IMG/VR virus record: IMGVR_UViG_3300050029_000117 | Location: 1 to 57,188 of that record | Strand: one strand, 5' to 3' | Source of the DNA: a virus | Length of the DNA stretch: 57,188 nt | Shown: piece after piece, positions 2,035 to 30,639 of the stretch | Position numbering within the stretch: the stretch's first letter is position 1 | Layout: every line of letters begins with the position of its first letter | Translations under genes and position numbers: made by a program | The notes under the pieces: model-generated | What the model saw: the letters and a program-made list of their open reading frames with translations, nothing else | What the model was told of the DNA's origin: nothing | The model's database searches: none

Positions 2035-2468
2035 CCTTTGAACTCCTTTAGCCACTTACCTATCGTGGTCGGTACGTGAAACTTGTCGGATAGCCACCAT
2101 AGAAACAATAGACCGACTAACGCCCGGTCGGTAAATTGTTTCTTGATGCTATCCCAGAATCTCTGCTGCCTTTTCTCCGCCACATACCGCCCGTCCTCCT
2201 TGGCGTGCCGCAGCTCTATATCTCGCAGCTGCACAAACGCCTGGTCGATATCCGTCTCTAGTTTTATTGACTTGGTGGCATGCTCATCCAGTCGTTGACC
2301 ATGCCCCGCGATAGTGGCACCTTGGTACGCTATGGCCTCCATTGCTATGGCCTGGCGTTCCATAAGTTCATCTTGCCGGTCCATGCGTTTGTCCCACCTG
2401 TCAATGGTCTTGTTGATTGACTCAAGCACTGGGTTCTGGGGGCACTCGGCCACGGTATGAAGTGTCAT
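2031..2468 (-). CDS. coiled-coil protein with a C-terminal transmembrane segment (function unknown; lysis or assembly accessory possible)
   Basis: ATGA overlap with the upstream gene at 2465-2468. The protein has a heptad-like charged core and a C-terminal ALVGLLFLWWL hydrophobic stretch. Confidence 0.45.
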   Translation of the reverse strand: MTLHTVAECPQNPVLESINKTIDRWDKRMDRQDELMERQAIAMEAIAYQGATIAGHGQRLDEHATKSIKLETDIDQAFVQLRDIELRHAKEDGRYVAEKRQQRFWDSIKKQFTDRALVGLLFLWWLSDKFHVPTTIGKWLKEFKG

Positions 2469-2911
2469 AGGTCTGAGGGCTCCTGTATGATGAGTGCCCA
2501 TTTTACTTCGGGCTTATCATACCAGCGGTCATTAAATTGTTTCCGACTGTAACGGTCAATCTTTGCGTTGTACGGGTTAAAAATATGAATCGCTTTGCCT
2601 GCTTTCACAACTACCCCGTAATGTCCTTCGCCACCCCACTGGTATAGCACCATAGCGGGTAGCGGTATATCTCTGATGTCCCGACCTTCATAGATAGAGT
2701 GACTGATACTCACTCTATTCAGGTACGCGGATAGGTTCGACGGCTCAGTGCCCGTTTCGTACTTGGTTTTAAGCTGCTCCTCGGTCGGCATGTAGTCGAT
2801 GGGCCGCGCAACGTGTGGCCACACAAGTATGCTGAAAAGATACCGTAGAGCGAACACTCCACAGGTCGCTTCATTCGACTGGCGGAATGCTAAGAGAGAT
2901 AGATCTTGCAA
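2465..2911 (-). CDS. papain-fold cysteine peptidase, C39-like
   Basis: Q-x5-C (FRQSNEATCGVFAL) is followed by GEGHYGVVVKAGKAIHIFNPYN...SRKQFNDRWYD, the Q/C/H pattern and tail of C39-like peptidase domains. TTG start with GAGG upstream. Confidence 0.55.
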   Translation of the reverse strand: MQDLSLLAFRQSNEATCGVFALRYLFSILVWPHVARPIDYMPTEEQLKTKYETGTEPSNLSAYLNRVSISHSIYEGRDIRDIPLPAMVLYQWGGEGHYGVVVKAGKAIHIFNPYNAKIDRYSRKQFNDRWYDKPEVKWALIIQEPSDL

Positions 2912-3354
2912 AATGTCGCCTCGCGTCCCGAGTCAAACCAGTTCTGGTGAGTGTGAAAAAACTCGCCACCGAATGTCTCGCAGAGATGTGTCATGGCTGG
3001 GTGGGTGCAGTGCGCCGTTACGGCCTCGCACTTACCGGCAATTCGCCCCATCCAGTTAGCCATCAGGATTTTGGTGAGTCCTTTACCTTCAAACTCAGGC
3101 AGAATTGCTGCTGAGTAGAGATAGATGTATTGACCCTCGGAATGATCAACATCCAGTATCTCCTCGTCAAACTCGGTATGCCTAACTCCGTACATCTCAC
3201 CCGCCAGCTTGCCGTCAACCAGCAGCCAGACCGTTATGCAGTTTTTAAGTAGGTCGGTCTTGTCAGTAACATCCAGCCGCAGCTCGGGCTCAAAAATGTC
3301 CTCAAACTGCATAGTGGTGTCAATGGGTAAATCCGTTCTAAATGTGATTTTCAT
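2890..3354 (-). CDS. GNAT-family N-acyltransferase
   Basis: Motif A is present: YLYSAAILPEFEGKGLTKILMANWM (R/Q-x-x-G-x-G/A type acyl-CoA site). ATGA overlap with the ATP-grasp gene. Confidence 0.6.
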   Translation of the reverse strand: MKITFRTDLPIDTTMQFEDIFEPELRLDVTDKTDLLKNCITVWLLVDGKLAGEMYGVRHTEFDEEILDVDHSEGQYIYLYSAAILPEFEGKGLTKILMANWMGRIAGKCEAVTAHCTHPAMTHLCETFGGEFFHTHQNWFDSGREATFCKIYLS

Positions 3355-5815: not shown

Positions 5816-8800
5816 CTAGTTGGCAAAAGGACTTAACCCCCCTGACATTCTTCGTCTTGCGTGATCCACCGCTTTTTGCATTATTTTGCGGCCCATTGTA
5901 GTTTTAAACATCTCTGGACCCACCGGGTTCTGTAGCAGGTAGTTGACTTCGTTTTTATCTAACGTAGGTACCATTGTGGGTATTTCTACCTCTTTGCCAC
6001 CCAGGTTTACACCTATCGATATCTCGCTAGATACTTTGCCGTCTGGTCGGTTCATCAGTCCGAGCCACCCATTACCCTTGTCGCTGCCATCCGCCCGCTT
6101 ACTCCAGTTGGTCTTATCAACGGATGCTGCTTTAGCAGTCGGCAGCACCGTACCAGGCTGAGTAGGTGTGAGTATTTGCTGACCGGTCTGGCCTATGATC
6201 TGCTGCGTACCATCCGCATTAACCAAAGTTTCAGGTTGCTTCTCGCCCACTTTGTACTGCTGTCCAGGTACGACTGGCCCACCATTCTCTCTGCCCTCAA
6301 GCTGACCGGCTTTCCATTCGCCATACGTACTGCCGTGGTGCCAGTCAGGCGTATCCTCGGCGGGTGGTGCGGGCTCCGGGTCTGGTGTGCCCACTGACTC
6401 CCATTTATCCGCCGCTTGTTGCTGATCGTCCGGCGGTGCAGCGGGTGCTGCGGCATTTGCTGCCTGTCCAGCTGCACCCCGCTTGGTGGCCTGTTTCATG
6501 TACCCCTCAAACTGCGCTTTGAGATAGTTCACCGTGTGCGCCGAGTGGTCGCCCTCAAGCACCGCCGTCAATGCGTCGGCCTTGCGACCGTCGAGCATTG
6601 CGTCCATTATGAACTCTTTTATCCGGCTCAACTGGAACTTGGTACCCGCCTTTATTAGTGTGGACACAATGCCTGCCGAGGTGTTGACTGCACCCCCCAT
6701 TTCGACAAGACGCGCCCCGTCGCGGGCTACTTGGTACCCCAGCCGAGCCTGTATGTTGCCGGTGGCGTTCTCTCTGGTGTTACTACCGGAACCGTACCCT
6801 CTGGCATTTCTGGACTGACTGATCTTTTTCAGTGTGCGGTAGAACCGGTGCAGCTTGGCTAATTCGGGTTTGTCGAATATTTCCGGCAATACGTCCTTCA
6901 GCTTTAATCTCAGCTCATTTGCTTTGGCGTAAGATAACTTTGGTCTACCCAGCGAGTCATCCACCCCCGACTTTGCCAGTTCATCGTACATGTAGTCACG
7001 AAAAAGACCCTTAACGCCCTTGACATACGCTGGATCGTCGGCACCAAAAGCTTTTAGGTCTCGGACTGCTTGCACTTTGTTACGTATTTTTAGGATAGCA
7101 GGCACTATCTCGGATGGTGGCAGGTCCATTATCTGCCCAACTACGGACTTGTTAAATGCGTCCACATCAGCCTGAGCTAAAGCGACCGACTCCCGGATCT
7201 TCTGCGTACTGCCAAATTCGTCCCGCAAGTCGTACTTAGTAAGTGTCTCTTTATTGTTGGCGATCCAGTCAGCAATTTTATGGGGCTTACTATCGACCAG
7301 ACTGGACAACTCGCGGTTGTAGTGGTCGCGCATAACATCAGCAGCAGCCTTGCGCCCTACCTCGTCGGGCAGCAGTCGGCCCTTGGCGTCTCGCTCCGTT
7401 GTCTCACTGAGCGATCTGATAAGATCGTCGGCACCGGTCGGCGTGGTGTACTTGGCCGGCAACTTCTCAGTGGGTAGCCTGGTGCCGTCGGACTGATTAC
7501 CCCGTTTAAAGATGTCTTCCATAGCGCCGGTACCGTACCGCTCTTTTTCCAGTCGTGCCAGACTGTTGGCTTTCTTATAGGCAGCGGAAAAATCCTCAGC
7601 CGGTTTCAAGTCGGCCAGTTGCTGCTGGCGCTGGGCGATACCTTCCTGGAGGCTGGTGACCAGTTGCGGATTGGCCGTTGCTACGGTGGGGGGTTGGTAA
7701 TCTGCACCACCACCCTTACCTTTGAGATAGGTGAGTCTGTCCGCCAGCGACTTGGCGTACTGAGCGTCGGTAATGCCTGTGTTCTGCATGATCGTCTCGC
7801 CTTTGCCGGCCAGATACTTGGCGAGGTGAGCATTCTGCTCTTTGAGCGGGGGCGGTGCGGCCTGCTCCTTAGCCAGTTGCTTCTCGGCCTCGGCAATCTC
7901 TGCTTTAATCTGTGACGGCCTGACCGCACGGAGCTTGCCGCCCGGAGCGGCTGGCGGGGCCAGCATAACGTCGCCCGTCTCAGCCGCTTTGCCCATGGCT
8001 TCGGCATCCTCGATCAGCGCGGACTTCATCTCCCCGAGGTAATGTGCAATGGTGGGGTCTACGTTTTTGCTGTACAAGTCCCTGTTAATCGACTTATACG
8101 CCGCCTCATAACCAGATGTAGTCCGCTCGTTATTGAGGATAGCTTTAAACTTACTAGTAAGCGTACTCTTAGCCACATCATCGATAGTTGTGTCTGCTGC
8201 GATCCTCTTGTACGCGCTCTCGGCAGCGGGCCACTCCATCTCATAACCCAGCTTCTCCACATCATTAAATGCCGCTTTTTTCTGAGTATTAAGCGGCTTG
8301 CGTTTGGCAGCCACAACATCAACCAGCGTGTCGCCCACTGCCTGCGGTCCGGGTGCTTGCTCCAGTCGGGTCGTCTCCCCAGCCAATTTACCAGTAGCGA
8401 CATTTAGAGTACCCCGCTTCTCAGCAGCTATAGCTGCTATCCTGTTTCTAATATCCGGTACTTTAGCAGGCGCCACCATCTTAGCCTGTCCCGCCGCCAG
8501 ACCAATCAACTCGTCCTCTTGCTTCACAAGTCGGCCCGCAAAAGATGGGTTGTCGTTAGCTTCATTCTTTGTAAAATCAGCAAGACCCTTGTTGCCCTCC
8601 AATGACGCAGTGGGAAACTGTGGTCGCTGACCCTCTTTCTTGGTAGAACCCAGGGTGTTCTGTAGTGACTCGGATTCAGCTCGGTTGTGCGCATGTACTT
8701 TGGCAGCTCTGGATGACAACGGATTGGCAGTGGCAGTGTACTCTTGGGCAGCGGTAAGTTTTGCCCGCTTGGTGGATAATGGCAGACCACGCTCGGCCAC

Positions 8801-9409
8801 GCCTCGGGTGGCCGCCTTGGCGCCGGACCGTAGGGCGTTGAGTGATGGTTTGATAGCCATAATCCCAGCTATGTCGCCGCCTATGTCTACCGCGTCCCTC
8901 ACCAATCCGGTATTACCGGTTACGTCCTCAAATTTATTAGTAGCGTCACCGAGATCATTACCCATATACCCCATAAGACGGGACTGGCCGAGTACCGGTT
9001 TAAACGCCCCAGCTTCGGACGCCTCTCGACCAGCGGCCCATGCCTCTTTTACTGGACGACCCGCCGATAACGCACCGGCAAATGCTCCTGTACGGTTTGC
9101 CAGCTTATTAACGCCCTGCACACCCTGTGTAAGCGCACCTTCTGCGATACGCGGTACTTCCATCAGCTCATTGGAAAGTCGGTCACCCACCTGACTCCAA
9201 AATCCAGGTTGTGCCTTGACGGCAGCCACACCAGCCTTGTTGGCTTTGGACCACTTGCCCTCATTGGCTGTCGGTGTGGCTACAGCGGGCTTACCACCGC
9301 CAGTAGATTGCAGATACTGGAGCGTCTTGGTACTGACCTTACCCAAATTGCCCGCCTGCATAGCTTCCAGATCCGGGGTCGGTATTTTGCTGTAATCCAC
9401 ATCGGCCAT
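5816..9409 (-). CDS. 1197-aa large internal virion / DNA-ejection protein (putative)
   Basis: Largest gene, last of three consecutive large or low-complexity genes after the tail hub, matching the position of ejection or core proteins in P22/T7-like podoviruses. No catalytic motif recognised. Confidence 0.45.
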   Translation of the reverse strand: MADVDYSKIPTPDLEAMQAGNLGKVSTKTLQYLQSTGGGKPAVATPTANEGKWSKANKAGVAAVKAQPGFWSQVGDRLSNELMEVPRIAEGALTQGVQGVNKLANRTGAFAGALSAGRPVKEAWAAGREASEAGAFKPVLGQSRLMGYMGNDLGDATNKFEDVTGNTGLVRDAVDIGGDIAGIMAIKPSLNALRSGAKAATRGVAERGLPLSTKRAKLTAAQEYTATANPLSSRAAKVHAHNRAESESLQNTLGSTKKEGQRPQFPTASLEGNKGLADFTKNEANDNPSFAGRLVKQEDELIGLAAGQAKMVAPAKVPDIRNRIAAIAAEKRGTLNVATGKLAGETTRLEQAPGPQAVGDTLVDVVAAKRKPLNTQKKAAFNDVEKLGYEMEWPAAESAYKRIAADTTIDDVAKSTLTSKFKAILNNERTTSGYEAAYKSINRDLYSKNVDPTIAHYLGEMKSALIEDAEAMGKAAETGDVMLAPPAAPGGKLRAVRPSQIKAEIAEAEKQLAKEQAAPPPLKEQNAHLAKYLAGKGETIMQNTGITDAQYAKSLADRLTYLKGKGGGADYQPPTVATANPQLVTSLQEGIAQRQQQLADLKPAEDFSAAYKKANSLARLEKERYGTGAMEDIFKRGNQSDGTRLPTEKLPAKYTTPTGADDLIRSLSETTERDAKGRLLPDEVGRKAAADVMRDHYNRELSSLVDSKPHKIADWIANNKETLTKYDLRDEFGSTQKIRESVALAQADVDAFNKSVVGQIMDLPPSEIVPAILKIRNKVQAVRDLKAFGADDPAYVKGVKGLFRDYMYDELAKSGVDDSLGRPKLSYAKANELRLKLKDVLPEIFDKPELAKLHRFYRTLKKISQSRNARGYGSGSNTRENATGNIQARLGYQVARDGARLVEMGGAVNTSAGIVSTLIKAGTKFQLSRIKEFIMDAMLDGRKADALTAVLEGDHSAHTVNYLKAQFEGYMKQATKRGAAGQAANAAAPAAPPDDQQQAADKWESVGTPDPEPAPPAEDTPDWHHGSTYGEWKAGQLEGRENGGPVVPGQQYKVGEKQPETLVNADGTQQIIGQTGQQILTPTQPGTVLPTAKAASVDKTNWSKRADGSDKGNGWLGLMNRPDGKVSSEISIGVNLGGKEVEIPTMVPTLDKNEVNYLLQNPVGPEMFKTTMGRKIMQKAVDHARRRMSGGLSPFAN

Positions 9410-9412
9410 GGG

Positions 9413-11356
9413 CTATTTTCCTTTGCGGCGTGCGAGTTCCGCCGCTATGGCGTCTTGTGTGACTCCTGCTGGTAACGTGTCGGCGGGTGTCTGATCCCCA
9501 CCCTGAACTCGTTTGTACACGTCCTGTATCCGACCTTCAATTTTTCTGAGTTGTTTGTTGTAACTTTGGGGTGAATTATTAATTTCGGTTTGTGCTTGTT
9601 TTATCTTGGCCTCCAGCACTTCCCAGCTATCGAATTTGCTCATTATCTGCTCGGCTGACATCTGAGCACCCACTGACAATTCCGCGACCGACCGGGCAGC
9701 ACCAGTTGTGACTTTCATATACTCTTTCTGGAATGCTTGAAGCGCGACCTCAAACTGGCCGTATTCTTTGCTGGACATATTCTTTTTCGCCCAGTTTACA
9801 AAATGGTTGGGGCCAGGGTAACTGGAGCGTCTGTAATTCGCACTGGCGGTACGCAATGCTTCTGCATTTTTTTCAGACTGACCGACCGCTTGAGCAACCG
9901 CATCGGATGCTGTTTTTAAGCTTATCAAAGATTTGGTGTCCGCTTTTAACTGCTTGGACCCCGCCATTACCTGATCGGGCGTAAGACCCCATTCGCCTAT
10001 CCGCAACGCGAAAGCATTGAGCATGGCCTCCTGCTTGTCGATATTCCCCCGGTACTTGCCGAAAGTCTGCCAGTTAGGGTTATCAAGCATCTTAGTAAAT
10101 TCCATATCCAAAGCGCCCTTGTTAAGCCCGATATACTTCTGGAGCTGCGGCAGGGTATAGTCGGCGGTTTTACCTTTACCGGCCGCACCGGTTTTACGCG
10201 CGTCCGATTTACTCTTAAACTCGTCGCGGATAATGTATGTGTCCCTCGTTTTTTCCTTCTTTAAGTCCTTTAGCCCCTCCAATACCTCTGTATCGGTCGG
10301 TACCCTACCGAGCGTCTCTTTAAGTGATCCTTTGACAAGCTGCTCGTCAGATTTAGTTTTTTCGATAGCGCCACCCGTGCTAATCTCCGCTGCATTGGTA
10401 ATATTTTTATCTTTCCCGCTAAGTTTCCACGACATCCCAGGTGTAGGGTACACTCCTTCTGGTATGTGTGGCTTCAATTTCTCATAGGCGGCGTCATACC
10501 CAGCCTTGTCAGTCTTCGGGTCTGGGATTCTCAACTCTACCTCAAAAGCATTGTTCGGCCCCGGTAAAAACCCCTTATTCTTGATGGCGTCCAGCGTCGT
10601 GTCGGCGTTGCGTTGCGCCACGGGGTTGTTGGCAAGGGCTTTTTTGCCCTCTTCCAGAAACTTGATCATCTCGGTTTTACGCTTCTTCTCGTCTGGTATG
10701 TTGAGTATCTGTTCTTTACGCTCGGCGTTCAGCGCACCGTACTCACCGACCTGCTTGGTGTAGACCACTTCCTGCTGCTGCTTGAGCTTCTGCGTGTCGG
10801 CATCCAGAGCCATAGCCGCTTGGACCGCCTGCTTGTTGCCGATCATATTATTGTCAGAGAGATACTTCTGGAGCCACTGAGTCGTAGGGCGGCCAGGCAC
10901 CTTAATCTCGTACTTATCGTCGGTGTAGCTCGGCGTGGTATCAGCGGGTGCGGTGCTGGGTGACTTCTCAGACTCGTACGCCTTTAAAAACATACCGGGG
11001 TCAGCGGCGGGCTGCTGGTCGGGCATACCTGATAGCGGGTTGGCCGGCAACGGTTGAGCCTGTGGATTGAGCGGTCCCTGCTGAGGTGTGGCGGCAAGTG
11101 GGTTGGCTGCGGGCTGTGCTGGCGCAGCGGGTGCTTGACCCTGACCGCTGGACAACCAGTTACCCGCCAGCATGTTCTGCGCCTGCTGCTCCACCTGGTC
11201 CTGCATCTGCTGGAGCGCGGACGTGCGGCGGTTGTCGCGCAACCGATCACCCATAGCGAGGACGTTCATCACCTCGCCGGCGGTAACGGGTGGTGTCTGC
11301 TGCATCGGCTGGAGAGGTGTTACGGGTACTTCATACGCTCCGGGGAGTGCCATCAC
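9413..11356 (-). CDS. 647-aa internal virion / ejection protein (putative), with a Pro/Gln/Ala-rich N-terminus
   Basis: Called from position and composition only. Confidence 0.4.
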   Translation of the reverse strand: MMALPGAYEVPVTPLQPMQQTPPVTAGEVMNVLAMGDRLRDNRRTSALQQMQDQVEQQAQNMLAGNWLSSGQGQAPAAPAQPAANPLAATPQQGPLNPQAQPLPANPLSGMPDQQPAADPGMFLKAYESEKSPSTAPADTTPSYTDDKYEIKVPGRPTTQWLQKYLSDNNMIGNKQAVQAAMALDADTQKLKQQQEVVYTKQVGEYGALNAERKEQILNIPDEKKRKTEMIKFLEEGKKALANNPVAQRNADTTLDAIKNKGFLPGPNNAFEVELRIPDPKTDKAGYDAAYEKLKPHIPEGVYPTPGMSWKLSGKDKNITNAAEISTGGAIEKTKSDEQLVKGSLKETLGRVPTDTEVLEGLKDLKKEKTRDTYIIRDEFKSKSDARKTGAAGKGKTADYTLPQLQKYIGLNKGALDMEFTKMLDNPNWQTFGKYRGNIDKQEAMLNAFALRIGEWGLTPDQVMAGSKQLKADTKSLISLKTASDAVAQAVGQSEKNAEALRTASANYRRSSYPGPNHFVNWAKKNMSSKEYGQFEVALQAFQKEYMKVTTGAARSVAELSVGAQMSAEQIMSKFDSWEVLEAKIKQAQTEINNSPQSYNKQLRKIEGRIQDVYKRVQGGDQTPADTLPAGVTQDAIAAELARRKGK

Positions 11357-12213
11357 CGACCTCCTGTTTGAAACGGGCCTACAGCTGCGGGGTCAGAATA
11401 CGTGTAGTTATAACCGCCCGTACCGTACGGGTTGTACGTTTGACCGTTCTGTGCGGCGGTTAGCAGATTCTGCTGGTTCTGGTAATTCTGGTAATTTTGC
11501 ACACCGCTCGTAAGAGCGTTACCGGCAATGTTACCGATATTATTCATTGAGGCTGACCGGGCATTACCAGCGGCTATCTGTGTACCCGCGATATTATTGG
11601 CGGCGTCGGTCCCTATTGTGGTCACATTATTAGTCATATTCTGGCCCGCTTGCCCTATTTGGCTCGCCGCTATCTGACCCGTGCCCGCCAGACCCGACAA
11701 CCTATTAAAGTCCGTATTCTGGGCGTTGAGGTTCGCGTTGTACGATGTGAGATTATTTTGGAATCCCTGCTGGTAGTACGTTTCGGCGTTGTTGCCCGCG
11801 AGAGCCTGGAGCGCCACCATCTGATTACCACTGCCGAGAGACCCACCACTTGCCGCCCCCGCCCGATTACTGGCGAGGATGTTGTTCTGCTGGGTCATCA
11901 TATTTTGGTACAACGGATCTTTCTTAAAAGCGGCCATGTCATAGTTTAGCGGGGTGGGCGTAGAGGCAAACCGTCCGCCTGGTTGCATACCTGTAGACAA
12001 CTGGTTTACGGCGTCCGTACCCGCTTTGAGCCACGGTGCCTGGTCCGCTCTCTGCTGGAGAAATTCGTTCCATTGGACCTGCGTGGCGGCATCTGCCGCA
12101 CTGGCCGTTGTTTGGGCCGCTGACTTTTGAGCGTCTGCCGCATTACTTGACGACGCATACGACACACCCGCTGAGATTGCCGCCCCCGCTACTACCGCAA
12201 CTGCTATCCACAT
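11353..12213 (-). CDS. 286-aa Gly/Ala/Asn/Gln-rich protein with an N-terminal TM segment (ejection-protein candidate)
   Basis: MWIAVAVVAGAAISAGVSYA hydrophobic start and low-complexity GANQ-rich body. ATGA overlap downstream and a 10-nt overlap with the radical SAM gene. Confidence 0.4.
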   Translation of the reverse strand: MWIAVAVVAGAAISAGVSYASSSNAADAQKSAAQTTASAADAATQVQWNEFLQQRADQAPWLKAGTDAVNQLSTGMQPGGRFASTPTPLNYDMAAFKKDPLYQNMMTQQNNILASNRAGAASGGSLGSGNQMVALQALAGNNAETYYQQGFQNNLTSYNANLNAQNTDFNRLSGLAGTGQIAASQIGQAGQNMTNNVTTIGTDAANNIAGTQIAAGNARSASMNNIGNIAGNALTSGVQNYQNYQNQQNLLTAAQNGQTYNPYGTGGYNYTYSDPAAVGPFQTGGR

Positions 12214-13244
12214 GACGCACCTCCTTGGTGCAGCTTGAATCCGTCCTTATACCCTTTCATAATTCCTTCGTTGATAATCTGGCAGATCGGCACTGGATAG
12301 CACCGGCCATCCATAGCCAACATAAATACAGGGCGCGACGCTTGGTGGTAGTCCAAATTATCTACCGTAGGCGCCGAGCTGAGAGATACCTGCGTACCCC
12401 CGTCCAACTCCAGGTAGAGACAATACATATTGGACCGCTCCACCGCCAGAGACATCCGGGGGTGGAGGTCTGCAAATTTGGCGATGAATGCTTTATGAAG
12501 ATCGGAAAGATACAACTGGTTGGTGTCACCCTTATTACCCCAATTTTTGAACATGGTGCGTATTCTCAGCATGGGGTAATACTTCTTGGTCACATCAAAC
12601 CACTCTCTGATGTAATCCAGCTCGTCGAGTGTCTGAATGGAAAACATAGAACACATGGCGTGCTTTCCTGATTTCTCCATGTTCTCCAGCGCGTGTATCT
12701 TGGCAGCAAATACGTCCGGCCCGTAATTCTTGGGGTGCTGCATGGACATGGCAAGGCGCAGCACATTGCCCTGACATAGCGGTGAGTCGAGTAACCGACT
12801 AAAAAACTCGTCGTCGGCTAGTCTGATCATGTTGGTGATCGCATTGATGCCCCAGCCGTGATCTGCCGCTTCTTGGGTAAACTCAAAAAAGTCTGGGCGT
12901 AGTGTAGGCTCTCCGCCCGACATAAGCAGATTAAACCCACCGTAGGGAGACAGCACGTTGTTGTAGTACGAGAACGGGTGCATCGGCTCCGCACCCATCG
13001 GGTAGTAACACCAAGAGCACTTCATGTTGCATTGGTCGTGGGTGTGGATGATAATTGTGTTATTGTTCCCGAGCGTCCCTAGCGAATAGAAATTGCTTAC
13101 ATGTTGGATGTCTTTCTCTACCACAGCACTGAACGGTCCATGCTCCGGGCATTCCTTGGTCATCACAACCATGCCGTTCTGGAATATTATCGCCGCTTCA
13201 ACTTTCCGGTAGCAGACCGGGCATAGCGAGAGTGTCTTTATCAT
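12204..13244 (-). CDS. radical SAM enzyme with an N-terminal zinc-ribbon-like module
   Basis: CNMKCSWCYY gives a CX3CX2C cluster. The N-terminus is MIKTLSLCPVCYRKVEAAIIFQNGMVVMTKECPEHGPF. ATG 13244 forms an ATGA overlap with the upstream stop, so the longer ORF-track N-terminus is rejected. Confidence 0.7.
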   Translation of the reverse strand: MIKTLSLCPVCYRKVEAAIIFQNGMVVMTKECPEHGPFSAVVEKDIQHVSNFYSLGTLGNNNTIIIHTHDQCNMKCSWCYYPMGAEPMHPFSYYNNVLSPYGGFNLLMSGGEPTLRPDFFEFTQEAADHGWGINAITNMIRLADDEFFSRLLDSPLCQGNVLRLAMSMQHPKNYGPDVFAAKIHALENMEKSGKHAMCSMFSIQTLDELDYIREWFDVTKKYYPMLRIRTMFKNWGNKGDTNQLYLSDLHKAFIAKFADLHPRMSLAVERSNMYCLYLELDGGTQVSLSSAPTVDNLDYHQASRPVFMLAMDGRCYPVPICQIINEGIMKGYKDGFKLHQGGASCG

Positions 13245-13612
13245 AACGTAGCAACCTTCCCGGACACGCTGGCCCGCACCACACCCGCCACACTGGCGGT
13301 CAATTGTAACGTGTACCCAGTCAGCAGCACCTCGGCCATAGCCAGTGGTAAGTACTGGCCTGCAGTCAGCAGCTGGTCGCATACATGCGTTGCCACTCCA
13401 GCCACTCCACCAGGCGGTATAGCGTGGATGGTGGCCGTACGGCTGGACCCGTCGGTATTAAACAGACTTACCCATTCCACGCGAGTAATGGCCTGCGCCT
13501 TATACTGAGGCGTTGCGGGCGCTGCGCTGGGGAGTGCCACACCGGGTATCAGTAGGGCATCCGTGGTGGGGTCGATATTTTTAATAGTCTGTACTTGCCC
13601 CGGACCGCTCAT
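13241..13612 (-). CDS. 123-aa virion-associated hypothetical protein
   Basis: ATGA-coupled at both ends (13609-13612 and 13241-13244). No motif recognised. Confidence 0.4.
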   Translation of the reverse strand: MSGPGQVQTIKNIDPTTDALLIPGVALPSAAPATPQYKAQAITRVEWVSLFNTDGSSRTATIHAIPPGGVAGVATHVCDQLLTAGQYLPLAMAEVLLTGYTLQLTASVAGVVRASVSGKVATL

Positions 13613-15393
13613 CTCTCCACCTCGGCGTAACCACCTAGTAATACTACACGGGTGGGATCTGACCCCCGCAGTTGCCACACCTTATCACGGGCCGCACCCA
13701 ATTTCCAGAAAACAATACGACCCGTAGCATCCTTGACCCGCTCGCTGCCGTAGGTGTGCCCACCATCCGTGGAGTATGATAGACCTAGCTGTGGTTTGGA
13801 CGCAGTATCTGTCAGTACTACGGAGGCGGGGGGTGGCAATGGAAACCCCGGAGGGGGTAGCTCCGGTCTGCCTATGGGTGTATACCCCCTGTTCAGTAAA
13901 GAGCTGTTGGTGGGGTCAACAAATACCACTTGAGGCGGCTGCGTGTAGCCCGTCCCGCCCGCTGTCAAGGTAACCGACTGGATGCTACCCAGACCCGCCA
14001 CTGCTGTAGCGGTTGCACCGGACCCGTTGCCGTCGGTTGTAACTATGACCACTTGCGGGTCCATAACATAATCATACCCAGGGTTGGTAATGGTGATACT
14101 TGCAACAGCATCGCCAGACAGAGTAGCTACCCCAGCCGCTACGCCCGGTACGGTGGTAATATCCGCATCGATCTCCAGCCTATTGACGAACAGACGATCC
14201 AGATCGTCATTGTCGAATAGGTGGTTGGTTCTCCGTAGCCACACTATCGGGTTTCCCACCTCAGTCAATCGCTCCTGGCTCATATGGTAGATATTGCCCG
14301 ACTGGTAATCACCGACCAGGTGCATGTTGTTAAAATAACAATACGAGTTGCTGAGATGCCGGTTTATCGCGTACGGGTTGTCCACATACGAGCTGCGGTC
14401 ATGCCACATCTGGGTGATCGTGTCGTAAACAAATGTCTCGTTATCGCCGGGGCTGGTAAACACGACAAATGTGTGACCACCCTCGCTGTAGCTGTAACCG
14501 AAAGCGTTTACTCGGTCCGTCCACTTACCCATCCGGTAGACATACGCCGGGGTGCCAATCCGCATCGGTGTGGCGCCGTTGAGCATGACAGGCCCGATAA
14601 ACTCCCCGCCGTTCTGCTTCCGCTCGGTGGCCAGCCAGAAAATACTACCCTCGCCCTGGCAGACTGACCCCGGTGACTCGGTACCCCACGGCACGACCGC
14701 ACCGGAGATCCGGCTGAACGGAAAACCGTTGATCGTTGGCGTGCCATTGTTCCCGTAGTACTCAGTGGTGTACTGCTTAATAAAAATGAGTTGTTCGGAA
14801 AAAGCGATTGGTACCTGTACGATGTCCGAGGCAGATTGCACGGGGGTAGTCGCCAGAGCGTTCCATGTCGTACCGTCGTATAGTTCCGAGGCTGAGGCGT
14901 TCATAGTACCGTTGGTGACGATGAAGTAACCATCGATGTACTCTACGTGGGAGGGAAACGTGGGAAATCCGGGGCTGGAGATGGTAACGAAGGTATTGGC
15001 TATCACATCATAGATGTACCCGGCCTGTCCGTCTACGATCATCAACTGGTTGCCGCCGATACCAGCGGACAAGATACCGTTATTTTTCATACTGACCTGC
15101 CCGAAGGAGGTCAGTAGCGCGCCGAGTTGCGCCGAGGCGGTGCCCGTAGCGTCAAGAGCGAACAGACCGTTGGCCGATACCACATAATTTTTACCGTTGA
15201 ACACGTGCTGACCGCGATTTGGCCCGACCCCCACGTTACCCCATTGGGAGCATCCTGGGGTCTTGACCAACGATATAACAGCCTTGCTGGTCGGATCTGC
15301 GTCCAGCTCGGGGTATAGGTTGACAGACCGACTCGCATTTACGTTGAGTGATCGGCCCTCCCCACTGCCGCCGAGTATTTGGAGCTTGGGCAT
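13609..15393 (-). CDS. tail hub / DNA-stabilisation protein (P22 gp10-like beta-propeller type) with a C-terminal extension
   Basis: N-terminal LNVNASRSVNLYPE...KTPG...RG...NGLFALD pattern, length, and position after the adaptor gene. The C-terminus carries two G-x-GY-x3-P-x-V-x-F/I motifs. Confidence 0.5.
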   Translation of the reverse strand: MPKLQILGGSGEGRSLNVNASRSVNLYPELDADPTSKAVISLVKTPGCSQWGNVGVGPNRGQHVFNGKNYVVSANGLFALDATGTASAQLGALLTSFGQVSMKNNGILSAGIGGNQLMIVDGQAGYIYDVIANTFVTISSPGFPTFPSHVEYIDGYFIVTNGTMNASASELYDGTTWNALATTPVQSASDIVQVPIAFSEQLIFIKQYTTEYYGNNGTPTINGFPFSRISGAVVPWGTESPGSVCQGEGSIFWLATERKQNGGEFIGPVMLNGATPMRIGTPAYVYRMGKWTDRVNAFGYSYSEGGHTFVVFTSPGDNETFVYDTITQMWHDRSSYVDNPYAINRHLSNSYCYFNNMHLVGDYQSGNIYHMSQERLTEVGNPIVWLRRTNHLFDNDDLDRLFVNRLEIDADITTVPGVAAGVATLSGDAVASITITNPGYDYVMDPQVVIVTTDGNGSGATATAVAGLGSIQSVTLTAGGTGYTQPPQVVFVDPTNSSLLNRGYTPIGRPELPPPGFPLPPPASVVLTDTASKPQLGLSYSTDGGHTYGSERVKDATGRIVFWKLGAARDKVWQLRGSDPTRVVLLGGYAEVER

Positions 15394-16782: not shown

Positions 16783-18018
16783 TTAAGATAGTGTAGCAGC
16801 ACTGCCTCCGCCCACTTCCACATACCAGATGGTTCCAACAGTCTTAACGACACCAAACGCTTCTTTGACCGCACGCATGACGCCGGGCCAATTTTCCGAG
16901 AAGTCGTGGCCCGCGATTACCCGCTTGGCCTTATCTCGCCAGGCTTCAATATTCGCTTTGCACCCTTCGTAGGTGTGCTCTGCGTCGATAAATACCATGT
17001 CCGCATCTTCAACGCAAGCGGCCATTTCCGAGCTGTTGCCGCGTGCGACCCGCAGGTTGGGGTACTGACCGACATTACGTTGGAACGTCTGAAAAACGTC
17101 CTCTTTTTCAACTATTTCCGACAAAATGCCGTTACTCGACGGGTCGTGGCCGGTCCAATTGTCAACGCATGTGACCATGCCCTTGCAACCCTCCAGCAGT
17201 ACCGTCGCACTGCGCCCTTTCCACGACCCCAGCTCAACCACACTACCCATCCGACCGGCGGTATTAAGCAACCACTCCAACTCTTGGTCGGTCATAAAGC
17301 CGTCGATCACCCGTGCTTTTTGTACGGCGGGTGGGTACTGCGCCTGTTTCTGCATAAACTCATGGAAGTTACCCGAAAATCCTTTGCTACCTTCGTGAAT
17401 GAAATCCACGTTGGGCAAACAGTGCATCTTGCCACCAATTTCCGACCAGAGATGACAGAAACCGTAGTCATCACCATACCACCGGCCCTTCTTGACAAAC
17501 GTACCGAACAGGTCATGGGTCATCAAACCGCTGGCGCAGTCGCGGTACGCAAGTTGCGGGTAAGCGTCCTGCATCTTTTCCAGTACGTGCCGGCGAATCT
17601 TGAGGAAACCTGTGGCCAGACCTTCAGCCAGCAGCACACCATTCTCATTGACCGGATGATGGTTTGCGTCGGTTGCCAGCGACACGGCAAATTCCTCAAC
17701 GGCCTGCTTCTTGGGGTACGCTCCACCAATTACATCCTCGGTGCTGGTAATCAGATCCCGGAATGCTTGCGGTGAGAATCCCAGATCTGCGTCGATAAAT
17801 ACCAGATCGGTGCATTCCGACGCCATAAACCGCCGGACCAAGTTGTTGCGGGCCATGGTCACATAGGGGCATCCGGGCTCAAACTTGAACTCGAAAGGAA
17901 CCTCCATAAGCAGGAGGGCTTGCATGGCGTTCATCAGAGACTGGACGGTGGATACGCATACCTTCTTGTCGTAGCAGGGAATGCCGATAAAGATTTTTAC
18001 TGGGGGTGCTTCAGTCAT
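16783..18018 (-). CDS. bifunctional GT-A-type glycosyltransferase / class I SAM-dependent methyltransferase fusion
   Basis: N-terminal half: IGIPCYDKK...ARNNLV...LVFIDADLGF, with a DxD. C-terminal half: GFMTDQELEWLLN...VVELGSWKGRSATVLL...VFIDAEHTYEGC...IAGHDF, a Methyltransf_24/TylF-like pattern. Confidence 0.6.
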   Translation of the reverse strand: MTEAPPVKIFIGIPCYDKKVCVSTVQSLMNAMQALLLMEVPFEFKFEPGCPYVTMARNNLVRRFMASECTDLVFIDADLGFSPQAFRDLITSTEDVIGGAYPKKQAVEEFAVSLATDANHHPVNENGVLLAEGLATGFLKIRRHVLEKMQDAYPQLAYRDCASGLMTHDLFGTFVKKGRWYGDDYGFCHLWSEIGGKMHCLPNVDFIHEGSKGFSGNFHEFMQKQAQYPPAVQKARVIDGFMTDQELEWLLNTAGRMGSVVELGSWKGRSATVLLEGCKGMVTCVDNWTGHDPSSNGILSEIVEKEDVFQTFQRNVGQYPNLRVARGNSSEMAACVEDADMVFIDAEHTYEGCKANIEAWRDKAKRVIAGHDFSENWPGVMRAVKEAFGVVKTVGTIWYVEVGGGSAATLS

Positions 18019-22137: not shown

Positions 22138-23940
22138 TTACTGCCTCCATACCGCTATCCGTCCAAATTTCAGTGTTAGCGTTTTTGAGTTGGTTATCGC
22201 CCCATCAGCGCGTACATACATTTGTAATGTTGCTGCTGAGATGGTTGTGGCTGATGCTGGTATTGTTAATATCGGGGTTCGTAGGTGCAGCACTTTGTCG
22301 GCATTTATCGAAACAGCGGTAGCCTCGTATCCCTCGATAGCACGGGTACTGAGTGACGCACCGTCAACCGTGGCGCGGAGGTCAAAAAATAGTTCCGTTA
22401 CTGGTGTATCCACCCAACTCGTAGAACTAATAAATACTTCTACTTCGGCATAATATGACCCACCCACTACCATGCGAGGCAAAAGTGTTGTGGTACTGCC
22501 ATATCCCTGGATACCTATCAAATTGCCCGATGCCATAGCAGTAACATCAATCTGCTGTACGTTGCCATACCCCGATGGATGTGCCGTAACAGAGCAGACC
22601 GCCGTGGGGGTCCCGGAAATTGCGCCAGCCCCTAATTCCCCCGCTACAACGCCGGTTGCTGTCCCTGACAGCGATCCGCCGGTTGCCGTGGCGAGTACGG
22701 GGTTGTTAAATATATTTTTGCTGCGACCCGCCTTGATCGTTCCGGTTGCTGCACCATCTGCACCAGCGGCAGCAAATGTGAATGTATCGGCCGCCGCTGT
22801 CGCCACCACAAAAACATTATTCAGGTCGGCTGGTGTAGCTCCAGTTACAGCGAATTGTTCACCCGCTCGAAAACCGTGTGCCGTGGCGGTTGCTGTGACA
22901 ATTCCCGATGTTCGGCTGAGTGTTACAGTGATTGATGAGTTTGCAAAACAATTGGTAGTTGACACAGGGCGCGTATCGGATTCGGTGGGTGCTATCGTGG
23001 CAACTATAGCGGCAACGGTGGCACCTATTCCACTGGCGGCAATTACACTGTAGTGGATTTTGTCCGCGATTTTGAAGTTGGTCGCAGTAGCAAGACCCGT
23101 TGTATCTGTGGGGTTCACAGTTCTACGGAACGCGTCAACATAGTAAAAACCGGCGTTGTCCTTGTAATTATCGTATATACGCTTGTTGAGGGTTTGTACC
23201 CTCTGCATATTTTGAACCGTTGCCCGCGCTTCCCCGGATGCCACAGGTGTCGCTGATACCAGGATAAGTTTTGATCCACTTCCTAGAATGCGAGTAATAA
23301 TTTTGCACATGGAGGTGTAAGTGGTTTCCTCGTCAATCGGACCATTTGATACGCTCTGGTCGTTAATTGTAGGACTCTGCATTAAAACAAGTTGCGGCTG
23401 GTACGCCATAACATCCGCTTCCAGCCTTGCCAGCACATCAACAGACGTATCCCCTGATTGAGCGCCATTTGATACGATATTCAGGGGGTAAGATCTCAGT
23501 ATCTGCACCCAATTCACCCACGAATGCCCACTCCTGCGGTGTGAATAACGGGTGAAGCATGTTCCAGGGACAGTGCCGTTTGGGATGTCCCGTGGAATGT
23601 CCGGCAGTAGCACGGTGTATGTATTATCATCAACTCGTGTAGCAATGAGATTTCGATGTTTTTTAATGCTGGGGTAATTCCGGTGCCAGATGGTCACATT
23701 CGCGCCGGTCCATAATTTATGGCCCGTTTCTACCACCGTAAGCACGCCTGTTGCGTTGTTGTAGGTGAATGACGTGGGAGCGCCAACCACGTCCCACCAA
23801 TCCGTCATTGAATCACCACAAAGTACGGTCCGCAAGCCCGTGGACCCACTAGGCCCTCTCACTCCTTGCCCACCACCAAACCCAAACGCCCACGCATTCC
23901 CCGCCCACAAACACATTGCTATAATCAGTAATCGCCTCAC
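22138..23940 (-). CDS. secreted-type SGNH/GDSL hydrolase (esterase/deacetylase) with C-terminal beta-rich binding domains
   Basis: GTG start. Signal peptide MRRLLIIAMCLWAGNAWA. GDS block VLCGDSMTDWW, and DKIHYS as a DxxH block. The C-terminal region resembles fibre or carbohydrate-binding modules. Confidence 0.55.
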   Translation of the reverse strand: MRRLLIIAMCLWAGNAWAFGFGGGQGVRGPSGSTGLRTVLCGDSMTDWWDVVGAPTSFTYNNATGVLTVVETGHKLWTGANVTIWHRNYPSIKKHRNLIATRVDDNTYTVLLPDIPRDIPNGTVPGTCFTRYSHRRSGHSWVNWVQILRSYPLNIVSNGAQSGDTSVDVLARLEADVMAYQPQLVLMQSPTINDQSVSNGPIDEETTYTSMCKIITRILGSGSKLILVSATPVASGEARATVQNMQRVQTLNKRIYDNYKDNAGFYYVDAFRRTVNPTDTTGLATATNFKIADKIHYSVIAASGIGATVAAIVATIAPTESDTRPVSTTNCFANSSITVTLSRTSGIVTATATAHGFRAGEQFAVTGATPADLNNVFVVATAAADTFTFAAAGADGAATGTIKAGRSKNIFNNPVLATATGGSLSGTATGVVAGELGAGAISGTPTAVCSVTAHPSGYGNVQQIDVTAMASGNLIGIQGYGSTTTLLPRMVVGGSYYAEVEVFISSTSWVDTPVTELFFDLRATVDGASLSTRAIEGYEATAVSINADKVLHLRTPILTIPASATTISAATLQMYVRADGAITNSKTLTLKFGRIAVWRQ

Positions 23941-30475: not shown

Positions 30476-30639
30476 TGTCGTCTCCTATCTCGGCGGGCGC
30501 GTGCTACGTCCTTGCCGATCTGGTCAAATGTGCGTTGTGGCGGTGCCCAGATGTCGCAGGGCTTGCCGCATTCGGAACAGCGAGTGGTGCCGCCGCATGT
30601 AGCTACCTGCATGTGACAGCAGTCTGAGAGCTGGCTCAT
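30472..30639 (-). CDS. 55-aa zinc-ribbon micro-protein
   Basis: ATGA overlap at 30636-30639. MSQLSDCCHMQVATCGGTTRCSECGKPCD..., with Cys pairs. Confidence 0.4.
   Translation of the reverse strand: MSQLSDCCHMQVATCGGTTRCSECGKPCDIWAPPQRTFDQIGKDVARARRDRRRQ

Follow-up and report, generated by a model that had tools for sequence, protein, structure and literature searches.

It is only partly understood how phages with short tails assemble a DNA conduit across the envelope from proteins kept in their capsids. The locus described here encodes a radical SAM (rSAM) enzyme amid the tail and ejection genes of a virus. The window (i.e., the whole 57,188-nucleotide stretch of viral DNA analysed) had been read, from its letters alone, as carrying an rSAM gene whose product would act on a virion protein or on the packaged DNA. 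We take this product, tentatively and at slightly less than an even chance, to be a non-structural radical enzyme, made late, which would mature an ejection protein, with ejection protein A the most likely substrate.

The gene and its neighbours

The rSAM open reading frame (ORF) runs on the minus strand from an ATG at 13244 to a stop codon at 12204-12206 (Table 1). An in-frame ATG further upstream, at 13382, would lengthen the product to 392 aa; the start at 13244 is preferred because the JGI gene call (P0001, 346 aa) is identical in sequence and start, and because ~120 homologues of 340-350 aa share the equivalent starting Met. The match of the ORF to radical SAM domains is far above chance: Pfam returns PF04055 Radical_SAM at E=3.6e-9 (37.5 bits vs a cut-off of 29.5), along with PF23545 Zn_ribbon_HMPTM at E=1.5e-17 and above its gathering cut-off.

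Table 1. Features of the rSAM locus, with the basis for each assignment
Feature	Position	Strand	Basis or remarks
Tail hub, P22 gp10-like, C-terminal Ig-like repeat region	13609..15393	minus	phrog_578, E=2.7e-72
Small beta-rich protein	13241..13612	minus	123 aa (Met 13612) or 145 aa (GTG 13678); needle/plug position
Radical SAM gene	12204..13244	minus	346 aa: rubredoxin-like domain, radical SAM core, beta-rich C-terminal domain
Rubredoxin-like metal-binding module, aa 3-43	13116..13238	minus	C8-X2-C11-X20-C32-X2-H35; CPVC...CPEH; PF23545
CX3CX2C radical SAM [4Fe-4S] motif CNMKCSWC, aa 72-79	13008..13031	minus	Sequence; strand beta1 (IIIHTHD) precedes
GGEP SAM-binding motif, aa 110-113	12906..12917	minus	Sequence; close-family conservation
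Ejection protein A, P22 gp7-like, 286 aa	11353..12213	minus	phrog_598 'DNA ejection', E=4.4e-26
Ejection protein B, P22 gp20 position, 647 aa	9413..11356	minus	Position and size in conserved order
Ejection protein C, P22 gp16 position, 1197 aa	5816..9409	minus	Position and size; weak C-terminal phrog_30701 match

Plus-strand letters 13241-13244 (TCAT) read ATGA on the minus strand, such that the stop codon of the upstream ORF overlaps the rSAM start; at the other end, the ejection protein A gene starts at 12213 and overlaps the rSAM gene by 10 nt. The minus strand was searched for terminator-like sites separating the rSAM gene from the ejection genes, and none was found. The gene is thus co-oriented with and translationally coupled to the tail/ejection block, as the sequence-only reading had described; its ATGA coupling and 10-nt overlap also stood, whereas the immediate upstream partner is the 123-145-aa ORF, with the tail hub one gene further.

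That small ORF matches nothing in Pfam or PHROG and has weak homologues, in the same position, in three other loci (L023, L038, and L039). For the tail hub, tblastn matches were to 'phage stabilization protein' and P22 gp10-like genes. The N-terminus of ejection protein A (MWIAVAVVAGAAISAG) is hydrophobic and rich in Gly and Ala, and ejection protein B has no significant family match in Pfam or PHROG. A further, conserved ejection-protein region reads QW..Y.Q.R.DQ.PW..AG..A.NQL. Elsewhere in the window, a GNAT (2890-3354) and a C39-like peptidase (2465-2911) were considered as obligate partners of the rSAM and rejected, both being absent from the 10-kb flanks of homologues with 74% and 69% identity.

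Motifs, predicted fold, and family

Motif conservation was assessed in a close set (83 members, 49-81% identity) and in a distant set of 66 full-length homologues. Across the close family, the catalytic motifs (C8/C11/C32/H35, C72/C76/C79, and SGGEPT) are invariant. C8, C11, and C32 are likewise invariant in the distant set, where the position of H35 is occupied by His in 58/66 and by Cys in 4/66; the GGEP motif is retained there at G110 (66/66), E112 (64/66), and P113 (62/66). The three Cys of CNMKCSWC hold in all of 120 close and 66 distant homologues; in the window protein an aromatic residue directly precedes the last Cys, as in the motif of the radical SAM superfamily, and the motif aligns in profiles with the RS motif of GDGT-MAS (CNLNCPIC) as well as with those of PqqE and anSME. 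The earlier call of a 346-aa rSAM ORF with CX3CX2C thus gains from PF04055 and the invariant motifs the standing of a genuine conserved enzyme, and the alternative raised with it, i.e., a decaying gene with an unconserved motif in close relatives, falls away.

An AF2 model of the protein (pLDDT 95.4, pTM 0.92) displays alternating beta/alpha elements, as expected of a partial TIM-barrel core, and its significant PDB matches are rSAM enzymes only. The top fold match is the tetraether synthase GDGT-MAS (7tol, E=1.2e-17, TMq 0.73), with other rSAMs at no more than 0.51; secondary matches include viperin, MoaA, BlsE, and DesII, as well as SuiB, SkfB, and EpeE. From its class, motifs, and fold, the protein is predicted to be catalytically competent. 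Certain polar residues (N138, R227, R/K229, and D298) are conserved family-wide and might serve to hold a ligand with a phosphate or carboxylate group, which counts against a protein substrate.

The family comprises 213 clusters at 90% identity. True members among the genomes of 185,579 species number only three, on MAG contigs of 26-42 kb, and family contigs are mostly 35-57 kb with phage structural genes; the family is virus-restricted, occurring essentially on phage-sized contigs only. The cellular proteins nearest to it are Acidobacteria and archaeal Tes-like proteins. MAG bins suggest Sulfurovum, Geobacteraceae, and Nitrospiraceae as hosts. A tblastn search of 50,697 GenBank phage records gave zero matches, and in BFVD no viral fold came near that of the rSAM model (TMq 0.47 at best), in keeping with the previous remark that such a placement is unusual; the rSAM would represent a new enzyme subfamily without a catalogued viral counterpart. 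Judging from sequence conservation, the family is under purifying selection. The hub and ejection proteins on either side are only ~20-49% identical between loci, i.e., the proposed protein substrate is fast-evolving and the rSAM is far better conserved. This counts against our reading, since conservation so far above that of the substrate would better fit a small conserved molecule.

The slot before the ejection-protein genes

The survey of homologue neighbourhoods that had been suggested with the sequence-only reading gave a consistent picture across 27 non-redundant loci. The gene directly after the rSAM encodes an ejection protein of phrog_598 or T7_gp14 type in 23/27, and three of the other four carry a variant form of the ejection protein, for 26/27 in all. 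This gene encodes the smallest ejection protein, and the distance from the stop of the rSAM to its start ranges between -12 and +131 nt, with start and stop codons overlapping or abutting in most loci. Such adjacency spans modules of P22-coat, Phage_capsid_3, Phage_capsid_4/SU10-portal, and T7-like (gp13/gp14) type; the upstream gene varies between loci, whereas the downstream neighbour is constant. Against the family profile, distant homologues, rSAM-GNAT fusions included, reach only E=1e-35 to 1e-57, and they too keep the adjacency. Because it is consistently placed just before injected-protein genes, the rSAM probably matures the injection machinery; this very strong synteny fits the earlier suggestion of a virion protein as the putative substrate.

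The slot need not be tied to ejection at all: it may be a mere permissive insertion point, i.e., the hub/ejection junction would be a recombination-permissive site for late accessory cargo (a 'moron'), with the role of the rSAM unrelated to ejection. Slot content is indeed highly variable among relatives (cupin, cupin plus SET, a 72-aa ORF, GNAT, or rSAM), the rSAM has clearly been exchanged among module types that are unrelated, and many close relatives are without it. We nevertheless regard this as distinctly unlikely, given the constant downstream neighbour beside a variable upstream one, the overlapping or abutting codons, the adjacency retained by distant homologues and fusions, and the independent fusion and adjacency with a GNAT-type slot protein.

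The same location, inside the internal/ejection protein block and coupled to its genes, would also suit an injected effector, for which the rSAM would itself enter the capsid as one more internal protein, leave it with the DNA, and act early in the next host, e.g., against an entry-targeting defence. Podophages do inject large enzymes, such as the N4 vRNAP, and the HXS defence is reported to block DNA entry via an rSAM-matured peptide. However, such a role would demand that an oxygen-labile Fe-S enzyme persist in the virion, unfold on its way through the tail channel, and rebuild its cluster afterwards; the rSAM has no hydrophobic or ejection-protein-like segment; and by analogy, P22 gp14, which shares the slot, is not known to be a virion component. 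We consider this very improbable.

A non-structural maturation enzyme in this slot, as we prefer, finds a parallel in P22 gene 14. The P22 gene order is 10, 26, 14, 7, and that of the window is hub, 123-aa ORF, rSAM, phrog_598. P22 gp14 is required for infectious particles, and we know of no explanation for its role. Modelling of its family (DUF2824; pLDDT 91.5) gave a predicted GNAT fold, with SpeG and PseH at TMq 0.8. No DUF2824 match is present in the window. Seven clusters of distant homologues are rSAM-GNAT fusions, encoded after the hub and directly before a phrog_598-like ejection protein. In addition, a separate GNAT gene in locus L048 lies two genes downstream of the rSAM and adjoins the ejection-protein gene that comes next, and in locus L129 a GNAT-like gene, with only weak HMM support and no Pfam match, directly follows the rSAM. 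A slot shared with a predicted GNAT, together with fusion and adjacency to GNAT domains, suggests that the slot generally encodes ejection-protein-modifying enzymes. Alignments with hhalign of DUF2824 to the fusion GNATs, to a T7 gp13-like protein, and to PBR31 orf030 were all non-significant, and the C-terminal half of the rSAM displayed no homology to slot proteins of rSAM-less relatives.

These GNAT associations can also be taken in another direction, i.e., towards modification of a small molecule, nucleotide, cofactor, polyamine-like compound, or DNA by Elp3-like radical/acetyl-CoA chemistry, with a GNAT in some lineages and with the genomic position reflecting late expression only. The fusions have the rSAM-then-GNAT domain order of Elp3, a tRNA carboxymethyl-uridine synthase; the conserved Arg, Lys, Asp, and Asn residues and the very high conservation of the rSAM among divergent phages are in line with this. 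So are the secondary fold matches to enzymes of nucleotides and sugar-nucleotides (viperin, MoaA, BlsE, and DesII) and the top GNAT folds for P22 gp14, SpeG and PseH being small-molecule acetyltransferases. Yet the Elp3 order is found in the distant homologues and not in the window protein, which has no GNAT domain; Elp3 is outside its best 50 fold matches and, to our knowledge, lacks a rubredoxin module, unlike the rSAM. A viperin-like identity was rejected as well (NCBIfam viperin score 34 vs a cut-off of 180), and QueE was not among the best 25 of 29 NCBIfam family matches, which leaves no backing for the identity as a known nucleoside-modification enzyme that the sequence-only reading had named as a refutation. 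The packaged DNA gains no support as a substrate: the Pfam scan of window ORFs detected no QueC/QueD/FolE/DpdA or kinase/transferase modification partners, nor any for deazaguanine, hydroxymethyl-pyrimidine, glycosyl, or further kinds of hypermodification, and the DNA-modifying genes of the window are ordinary N6/N4 and C5 DNA methylases only. Moreover, the constant place beside ejection protein A in at least four module types would go unexplained. On these grounds, we deem a small-molecule or DNA substrate unlikely.

Proposed role and relation to known systems

In our preferred reading of ejection-protein maturation, the rSAM would be made late, from one transcript with the tail and ejection genes, and its translation would be coupled to that of ejection protein A. 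The enzyme would combine an iron site of rubredoxin type with one [4Fe-4S] cluster that cleaves SAM and with a C-terminal domain that is novel. At a stage before the ejection proteins enter the procapsid, or while they do so, its 5'-deoxyadenosyl radical would abstract hydrogen from an unactivated position in ejection protein A or in one of the others, and the resulting covalent change may be an epimerisation, a C-C or C-S cross-link, or a methylation. This would alter membrane insertion, periplasmic stability, or assembly of the trans-envelope conduit. Ejection protein A belongs to the same family in phages with and without the rSAM, and comparison of the two groups revealed no rSAM-specific motif. 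An aromatic residue at positions 2-4 was considered as a mark of rSAM action; it is absent in two rSAM-less relatives, albeit a tiny sample, and was rejected because T7 gp14 has such a residue as well and because ejection proteins after rSAM-GNAT fusions are without a hydrophobic N-terminus altogether, which itself counts against the proposed role.

The closest known system is GDGT-MAS/Tes (MJ0619; PDB 7tol and 7tom). The likeness to archaeal C-methylating and tetraether-forming enzymes, suggested in the sequence-only reading, proved well founded, with PF23545 detected and GDGT-MAS the best match in both fold and sequence (profile E=1.2e-24). The radical SAM cores are homologous, and both proteins share the rubredoxin-type site with identical CX2C-X20-CX2H spacing, i.e., C9X2C12X20C33X2H36 in GDGT-MAS corresponds to C8, C11, C32, and H35 of the rSAM. 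However, the C-terminal domains differ, and GDGT-MAS is ~500 aa in length vs 346 aa. It has two CX3CX2C motifs, the extra one being an N-terminal auxiliary cluster motif with a His, whereas the rSAM has one; in profiles this lone motif aligns to both, and it is assigned as the RS motif because strand beta1 precedes it and its spacing to GGEP is 31 aa. GDGT-MAS also has a C-terminal auxiliary [4Fe-4S] domain (labile Met439 and Tyr459), for which the rSAM family has no conserved cluster ligands. C198, C275, C302, C315, and C321 were rejected as such ligands, with no compensatory Cys pattern and no conservation in the 66 distant homologues; an auxiliary cluster is dropped as a family-wide feature and could be present in the core family alone.

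The Tes HMM (NF045702) scores 64.3 bits against the rSAM (cut-off 450), matching well over aa 3-79 only, and the TrsS radical SAM (seleno)protein was set aside on similar numbers (NF045646; 79.5 bits vs a cut-off of 490, N-terminal 79 aa only). With no auxiliary-cluster cysteines conserved family-wide, the rSAM is therefore not a Tes orthologue, and a full Tes-type enzyme is not borne out, the auxiliary [4Fe-4S] clusters of Tes chemistry being absent; sequence and model instead indicate a compact, virus-restricted offshoot of the GDGT-MAS/Tes (HMPTM) clade. Tes proteins are archaeal or bacterial and have a lipid context, whereas the rSAM is viral and lies in a virion-assembly operon. The family would amount to a minimal Tes/GDGT-MAS scaffold, with rubredoxin site and RS cluster and without auxiliary clusters, and thus be useful for learning what the auxiliary clusters of Tes contribute.

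This kinship makes a Tes-like chemistry on saturated lipid tails conceivable. The target would be either host membrane lipids late in infection or an acyl chain that the slot GNAT would have placed on an ejection protein, and the outcome would be to prime membrane penetration. GDGT-MAS is by far the closest relative in structure and sequence, the rubredoxin site is kept, the nearest cellular relatives are Tes-like, and ejection proteins insert into membranes; GNAT-fold toxin-activating acyltransferases, moreover, lipidate pore-forming proteins. Nonetheless, in the published Tes mechanism the first radical has to be held by a sulfur of a cluster, and the rSAM has neither the N-terminal auxiliary cluster nor family-wide cysteines for the C-terminal one, in addition to its shorter length and low Tes score. 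Its conserved pocket residues are polar, and these podophage modules contain no sign of a lipid component. Lipid chemistry is thus, in our estimation, decidedly improbable.

For maturation of an ejection protein, the nearest functional likeness would be to enzymes that abstract hydrogen from a peptide or protein encoded next door, such as the epimerases PoyD, YydG, and EpeE, as well as SuiB, SkfB, and anSME. SuiB, SkfB, and EpeE are secondary fold matches (TMq only 0.38-0.51) and anSME a profile match. RiPP-type enzymes act on a short precursor peptide, whereas the putative substrate of the rSAM is a virion protein of 170-390 aa. Assignment as a SPASM/twitch maturase was rejected: the only C-terminal Cys are C275, C315, C321, and C345, none conserved family-wide, with no CX2CX5CX3C or half-motif spacing. 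For the sactipeptide, PqqE, and mycofactocin HMMs, whose cut-offs lie at 265-625, the scores are 25-29 bits, and no RiPP-recognition element was found in the protein. The want of both elements weighs against the proposed role.

In one T7-like locus, the rSAM lies between gp13 and gp14, beside the slot that in T7 itself precedes the ejection proteins; T7 gp13 (a 'probable scaffold protein' in Pfam and an 'internal virion protein' in PHROG) is unrelated to it in sequence. P22 gene 14 occupies the same slot as the rSAM, between hub/needle and gene 7 in the same late operon, and its product is likewise enzyme-like, but it is modelled as a GNAT and not a radical SAM enzyme, with no sequence or fold relationship between the two. 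Our searches of the literature on DUF2824, on what gene 14 of P22 does, on Tes-like enzymes of phages, and on rSAM enzymes in connection with ejection proteins returned nothing relevant. Taken together, an rSAM confined to viruses and tied to ejection genes and the GNAT fold predicted for gp14 suggest that ejection proteins are modified enzymatically. A broader proposition, possible if on balance doubtful, is that podophage ejection (pilot) proteins are matured before packaging, in a RiPP-like manner, by the enzymes of this slot, i.e., a GNAT (P22 gene 14), GNAT-rSAM fusions, cupin/SET proteins, or a stand-alone rSAM; the last would add a radical-derived change (D-residues, or a carbon-carbon or thioether link) to ejection protein A. 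If true, this would define a new class of virion-protein post-translational modification and provide a function for the long-unexplained gene 14 of P22.

The radical SAM gene among the late virion genes

The window encodes an intact SAM-radical enzyme (rSAM) that is produced alongside the late virion genes and is tied in evolution to ejection protein A, the P22 gp7-like product of the next gene. On the minus strand, the ORF runs from an ATG at 13244 to a stop at 12204 (346 aa); an in-frame ATG further upstream, at 13382, would give 392 aa, and the 13244 start is backed by P0001, an identical 346-aa protein encoded on a 57,188-bp JGI contig, as well as by a Met1 common to homologues of ~340–350 aa. 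Sequence and Pfam together confirmed the features first noticed in the sequence-only reading, i.e., (i) a radical SAM ORF with a CX3CX2C motif (CNMKCSWC, residues 72–79; GGEP, residues 110–113; Radical_SAM, E=3.6e-9), (ii) an N-terminal CPVC...CPEHG module with rubredoxin-type ligands (C8-X2-C11-X20-C32-X2-H35; Zn_ribbon_HMPTM, E=1.5e-17; both matches above gathering scores), (iii) an ATGA in which the preceding ORF's stop and the rSAM start overlap, and (iv) a 10-nt overlap of the rSAM stop by the downstream gene. As to the flanking genes, the ejection-protein gene downstream stood, whereas the tail hub is not directly upstream, as a small ORF intervenes.

The window is that of a P22-like podophage, with a minus-strand order of TerL, P22-type portal, scaffold, P22-type coat, adaptor, hub, 123-aa ORF, rSAM, and ejection genes. 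Three ejection-protein-like genes follow rSAM (286, 647, and 1197 aa), with no terminator-like site on this strand between them and the rSAM gene. Other enzyme-like genes also lie within structural modules, both here and in L132, a phage with a 74%-identical rSAM (see table); the window further encodes a Cpn10/GroES-like co-chaperonin, and in another rSAM-carrying phage (P0033 locus) a Cpn10 gene adjoins the portal.

Features of the window and of compared loci
Locus	Coordinates	Strand	Feature	Details
Window	2465-2911	minus	Stand-alone Peptidase_C39-like cysteine peptidase	26.5 bits vs cut-off 22; nearly full profile; QxxxxxCG...GHY motifs
Window	2890-3354	minus	GNAT acetyltransferase	End of late block; Acetyltransf_1, 21.2 bits vs cut-off 20.7
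Window	11353-12213	minus	Ejection protein A	phrog_598
Window	12204-13244	minus	rSAM
Window	13241-13612/13678	minus	Small ORF between hub and rSAM	123 aa from 13612
Window	13609-15393	minus	Tail hub	phrog_578
Window	16783-18018	minus	Enzyme-like gene in head-tail module	411 aa; between coat/decoration genes and adaptor; N-terminal half phrog_1574, C-terminal half Methyltransf_24 class I methyltransferase (E=1.4e-13)
Window	22138-23940	minus	PHROG 'lipase'	600 aa; between portal and scaffold; phrog_6102 (E=4.8e-19); no Pfam match
Window	30636-30941	minus	Cpn10/GroES-like	E=1.3e-7
Window	35528-36151		Pentapeptide-repeat protein	E=7.9e-38
Window	38501-39334		N6/N4 DNA methylase
Window	41700-41924		74-aa ORF
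Window	51303-52676		C5 cytosine methylase
L132	8186-8629		Prok-JAB (JAB/MPN metalloprotease)	Directly after hub
L132	17042-18033		CHAP and Lipase_3 genes	After ejection block, end of tail block
L125 (P22)	8911-9366		gp14	DUF2824
L006 (VvAW1)	7502-7996		gp04	Cupin-like
L005 (P26218)	7858-8733		gp30	Cupin-like and SET-motif domains
L127 (rSAM-less)	7739-8188		Cupin-like slot protein	Before ejection protein
L129	602-955		Small beta-rich protein
L126	6578-7295		Small beta-rich protein

Across 27 non-redundant rSAM loci, the next gene starts −12 to +131 nt from the rSAM stop. Its product carries a hydrophobic Gly/Ala-rich N-terminus in 23 loci, with the same N-terminus extended or truncated in three of the remaining four. 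All products tested were phrog_598 'DNA ejection' proteins (P22 gp7-like) or, in a T7-like locus, T7_gp14. The gene upstream differs by locus (hub, fibre, plug-like ORF, T7 gp13, even TerL), yet adjacency to ejection protein A is kept in P22-coat, Phage_capsid_3, Phage_capsid_4 plus SU10-portal, and T7-like internal-protein modules; the rSAM gene has thus moved between lineages, in each ahead of ejection protein A.

Family conservation and cofactors

In a search of 5.8 billion proteins, rSAM relatives formed 213 clusters, nearly all of 340–350 aa. None of the rubredoxin ligands, the three cluster cysteines, or the SGGEPT residues varies among 83 members (49–81% identity to the window protein; mean column identity 56%), and this alignment shows rSAM to be an enzyme under strong purifying selection; the invariant cysteines also dispose of the alternative of a decaying gene, with a CX3CX2C unconserved in close relatives. 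No tblastn match was detected in 50,697 GenBank phage records, nor any close fold in BFVD. Among 185,579 prokaryotic species (one genome each), there were only three true members, all on 26–42 kb MAG contigs (bins Sulfurovum, Geobacteraceae, and Nitrospiraceae), with the next-best matches being Acidobacteria and archaeal Tes-like proteins (23–29% identity, N-terminal half). An exhaustive HMM search with the rSAM profile yielded 88 representatives at E up to 1e-30, among them a class of 310–370 aa matched end to end and a class of ~400 aa matching only the first 250 profile positions. So far, the compact full-length architecture has turned up solely in the vicinity of phage structural genes.

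The AlphaFold2 model of rSAM (pLDDT 95.4, pTM 0.92) best matched the archaeal tetraether lipid synthase GDGT-MAS (Tes; PDB 7tol; E=1.2e-17, TMq 0.73), with SuiB, SkfB, MoaA, and viperin far behind (TMq ≤0.51). Sequence searches also support GDGT-MAS as nearest relative, in agreement with the likeness to archaeal C-methylating and tetraether-forming enzymes initially proposed. According to the GDGT-MAS paper, its rubredoxin site is C9X2C12X20C33X2H36, a spacing identical to that of phage rSAM, and the cluster ligated by C73, C77, and C80 is not the SAM one but an N-terminal auxiliary one; GDGT-MAS thus has two consecutive CX3CX2C motifs, whereas phage rSAM has one. As this sole motif follows strand β1, lies 31 residues before GGEP, and aligns to the radical SAM (RS) motifs of GDGT-MAS, PqqE, and anSME, it is the one that binds the radical SAM cluster, and phage rSAM lacks an N-terminal auxiliary cluster.

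Further cysteines are frequent in the core family (C198, 100%; C315, 94%; C275, 87%; position 302, 76%, Ala in the window protein), with no compensatory pattern there. All four positions are unconserved in 66 distant full-length homologues, and an auxiliary cluster was hence dropped as a family-wide feature. What those homologues do share with the core family are the ligands of the rubredoxin site (H35 in 58/66) and of the RS cluster, GGEP, N138, R227, R/K229, and D298; from these patterns, the family as a whole would therefore carry a single [4Fe-4S] cluster besides a rubredoxin-type metal. Since Tes stores its first radical on an auxiliary-cluster sulfur (GDGT-MAS paper), phage rSAM is not a Tes orthologue. 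Its NCBIfam scores, from the N-terminal 79 residues, are 64 for Tes (cut-off 450) and 79.5 for TrsS (cut-off 490). Lipid chemistry, as carried out by this nearest relative, is an improbable function for rSAM. Separately, a distant homologue (P0177, 671 aa) has a LAGLIDADG/intein inserted between rubredoxin module and rSAM core; an intein-containing Tes likewise has an NCBIfam model.

The gene 14 slot and its occupants

In P22, the order is 10 (hub), 26 (needle), 14, 7, 20, 16, and rSAM occupies the position of gene 14. P22 gp14, annotated 'head morphogenesis', is predicted to have a GNAT acetyltransferase fold; i.e., a model of DUF2824, its Pfam family, displays canonical GNAT topology (pLDDT 91.5), with SpeG and PseH among the hundreds of GNATs matched (TMq ~0.8, E=5e-9). 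In the literature searched, no paper dealt with DUF2824 fold or function. In rSAM-less relatives, the slot holds a cupin-like protein (Vibrio phage VvAW1, MW202674), a cupin-like domain with a C-terminal SET-motif domain (Rhodoferax phage P26218; NHSPNP and GDEVTIDY; Pfam SET E=0.015, under threshold), or only a 72-aa ORF (Xfas53 gp37). PHROG places the cupin-like proteins in phrog_24280 and phrog_12032, two families that bear a tail-fibre annotation. Small beta-rich proteins of 110–125 aa recur between hub and slot (window, L129, L126); these are alike by eye, with weak phmmer matches (E ~1e-5 to L023, L038, L039), and one (Xanthomonas phage PBR31), although labelled 'acetyltransferase', shows no obvious likeness to such an enzyme.

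A C-terminal GNAT domain is present in seven distant rSAM homologue clusters, six with Acetyltransf_1 at 24–33 bits (cut-off 20.7) and the seventh (P0162) under the Pfam cut-off but matching an HMM of the seven fusion GNATs, itself included. One fusion lies directly after the hub; behind two, the gene for a phrog_598-like ejection protein begins within 2–17 nt, and larger ejection-type genes come next, the last SLT-bearing in one of the two loci. These ejection proteins share the motif QW..Y.Q.R.DQ.PW..AG..A.NQL with ejection protein A of the window. Elsewhere, one distant locus reads rSAM, collar fibre, stand-alone GNAT, ejection protein, and in another a GNAT-like gene (weak match) overlaps the rSAM stop. 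Through fusion and adjacency, the rSAM family, GNAT, and ejection protein A are thus repeatedly linked; that rSAM is instead an accessory gene without ties to ejection, occupying a permissive slot, is rather unlikely.

The window rSAM itself has no GNAT domain. A GNAT gene and a C39-like peptidase gene, overlapping each other, are encoded where this minus-strand block ends; as obligate rSAM partners both were rejected, being absent near close homologues. C39 domains normally cleave double-glycine leaders off bacteriocins and RiPPs, making such a peptidase odd for a tail/ejection operon.

Candidate substrates and known systems

We tentatively propose, at somewhat under even odds, that rSAM is a non-structural maturation enzyme covalently changing an ejection protein. 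There, rSAM would abstract hydrogen from the ejection protein and leave a covalent change, with candidate outcomes including epimerization with a thiol hydrogen donor (possibly C198, whose invariance is confined to the core family), formation of one cross-link, or a rubredoxin-site-assisted change; with no auxiliary clusters, such simpler outcomes are likelier than a Tes-like joining of two methyl groups. Counting against maturation, no rSAM-specific substrate motif was found in the ejection proteins, the conservation of rSAM far exceeds that of its proposed substrate, and the conserved pocket residues are polar. For the same reasons, a small-molecule or nucleotide substrate must be allowed for, though we consider it unlikely; that rSAM is an injected effector is very doubtful.

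DNA modification by rSAM has no support. The packaged DNA had earlier been offered as a likely substrate, but a Pfam scan detected no hypermodification genes in the rest of the window, which encodes primase, helicase, DUF2800, ordinary N6/N4 and C5 methylases, lysozyme, Cpn10, and HNH. The methylase, pentapeptide-repeat, and 74-aa ORF genes of the replication/early region may be anti-restriction or regulatory, the 74-aa ORF being by eye the likely source of a TetR_N match.

Ultimately, rSAM represents a new virus-specific subfamily in an unprecedented context; in the literature searched, no paper treated the family or a phage Tes-like enzyme. The maturation hypothesis is testable and bears on the unexplained gene 14 of P22. 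Compared with known systems, distant fused homologues mimic the domain order of Elp3 and do not resemble its fold, while the proposed action of phage rSAM is like that of peptide-modifying rSAM enzymes, whose SPASM/twitch and recognition elements it lacks. By fold, phage rSAM is a trimmed relative of GDGT-MAS, and by position it is the analogue of P22 gp14.
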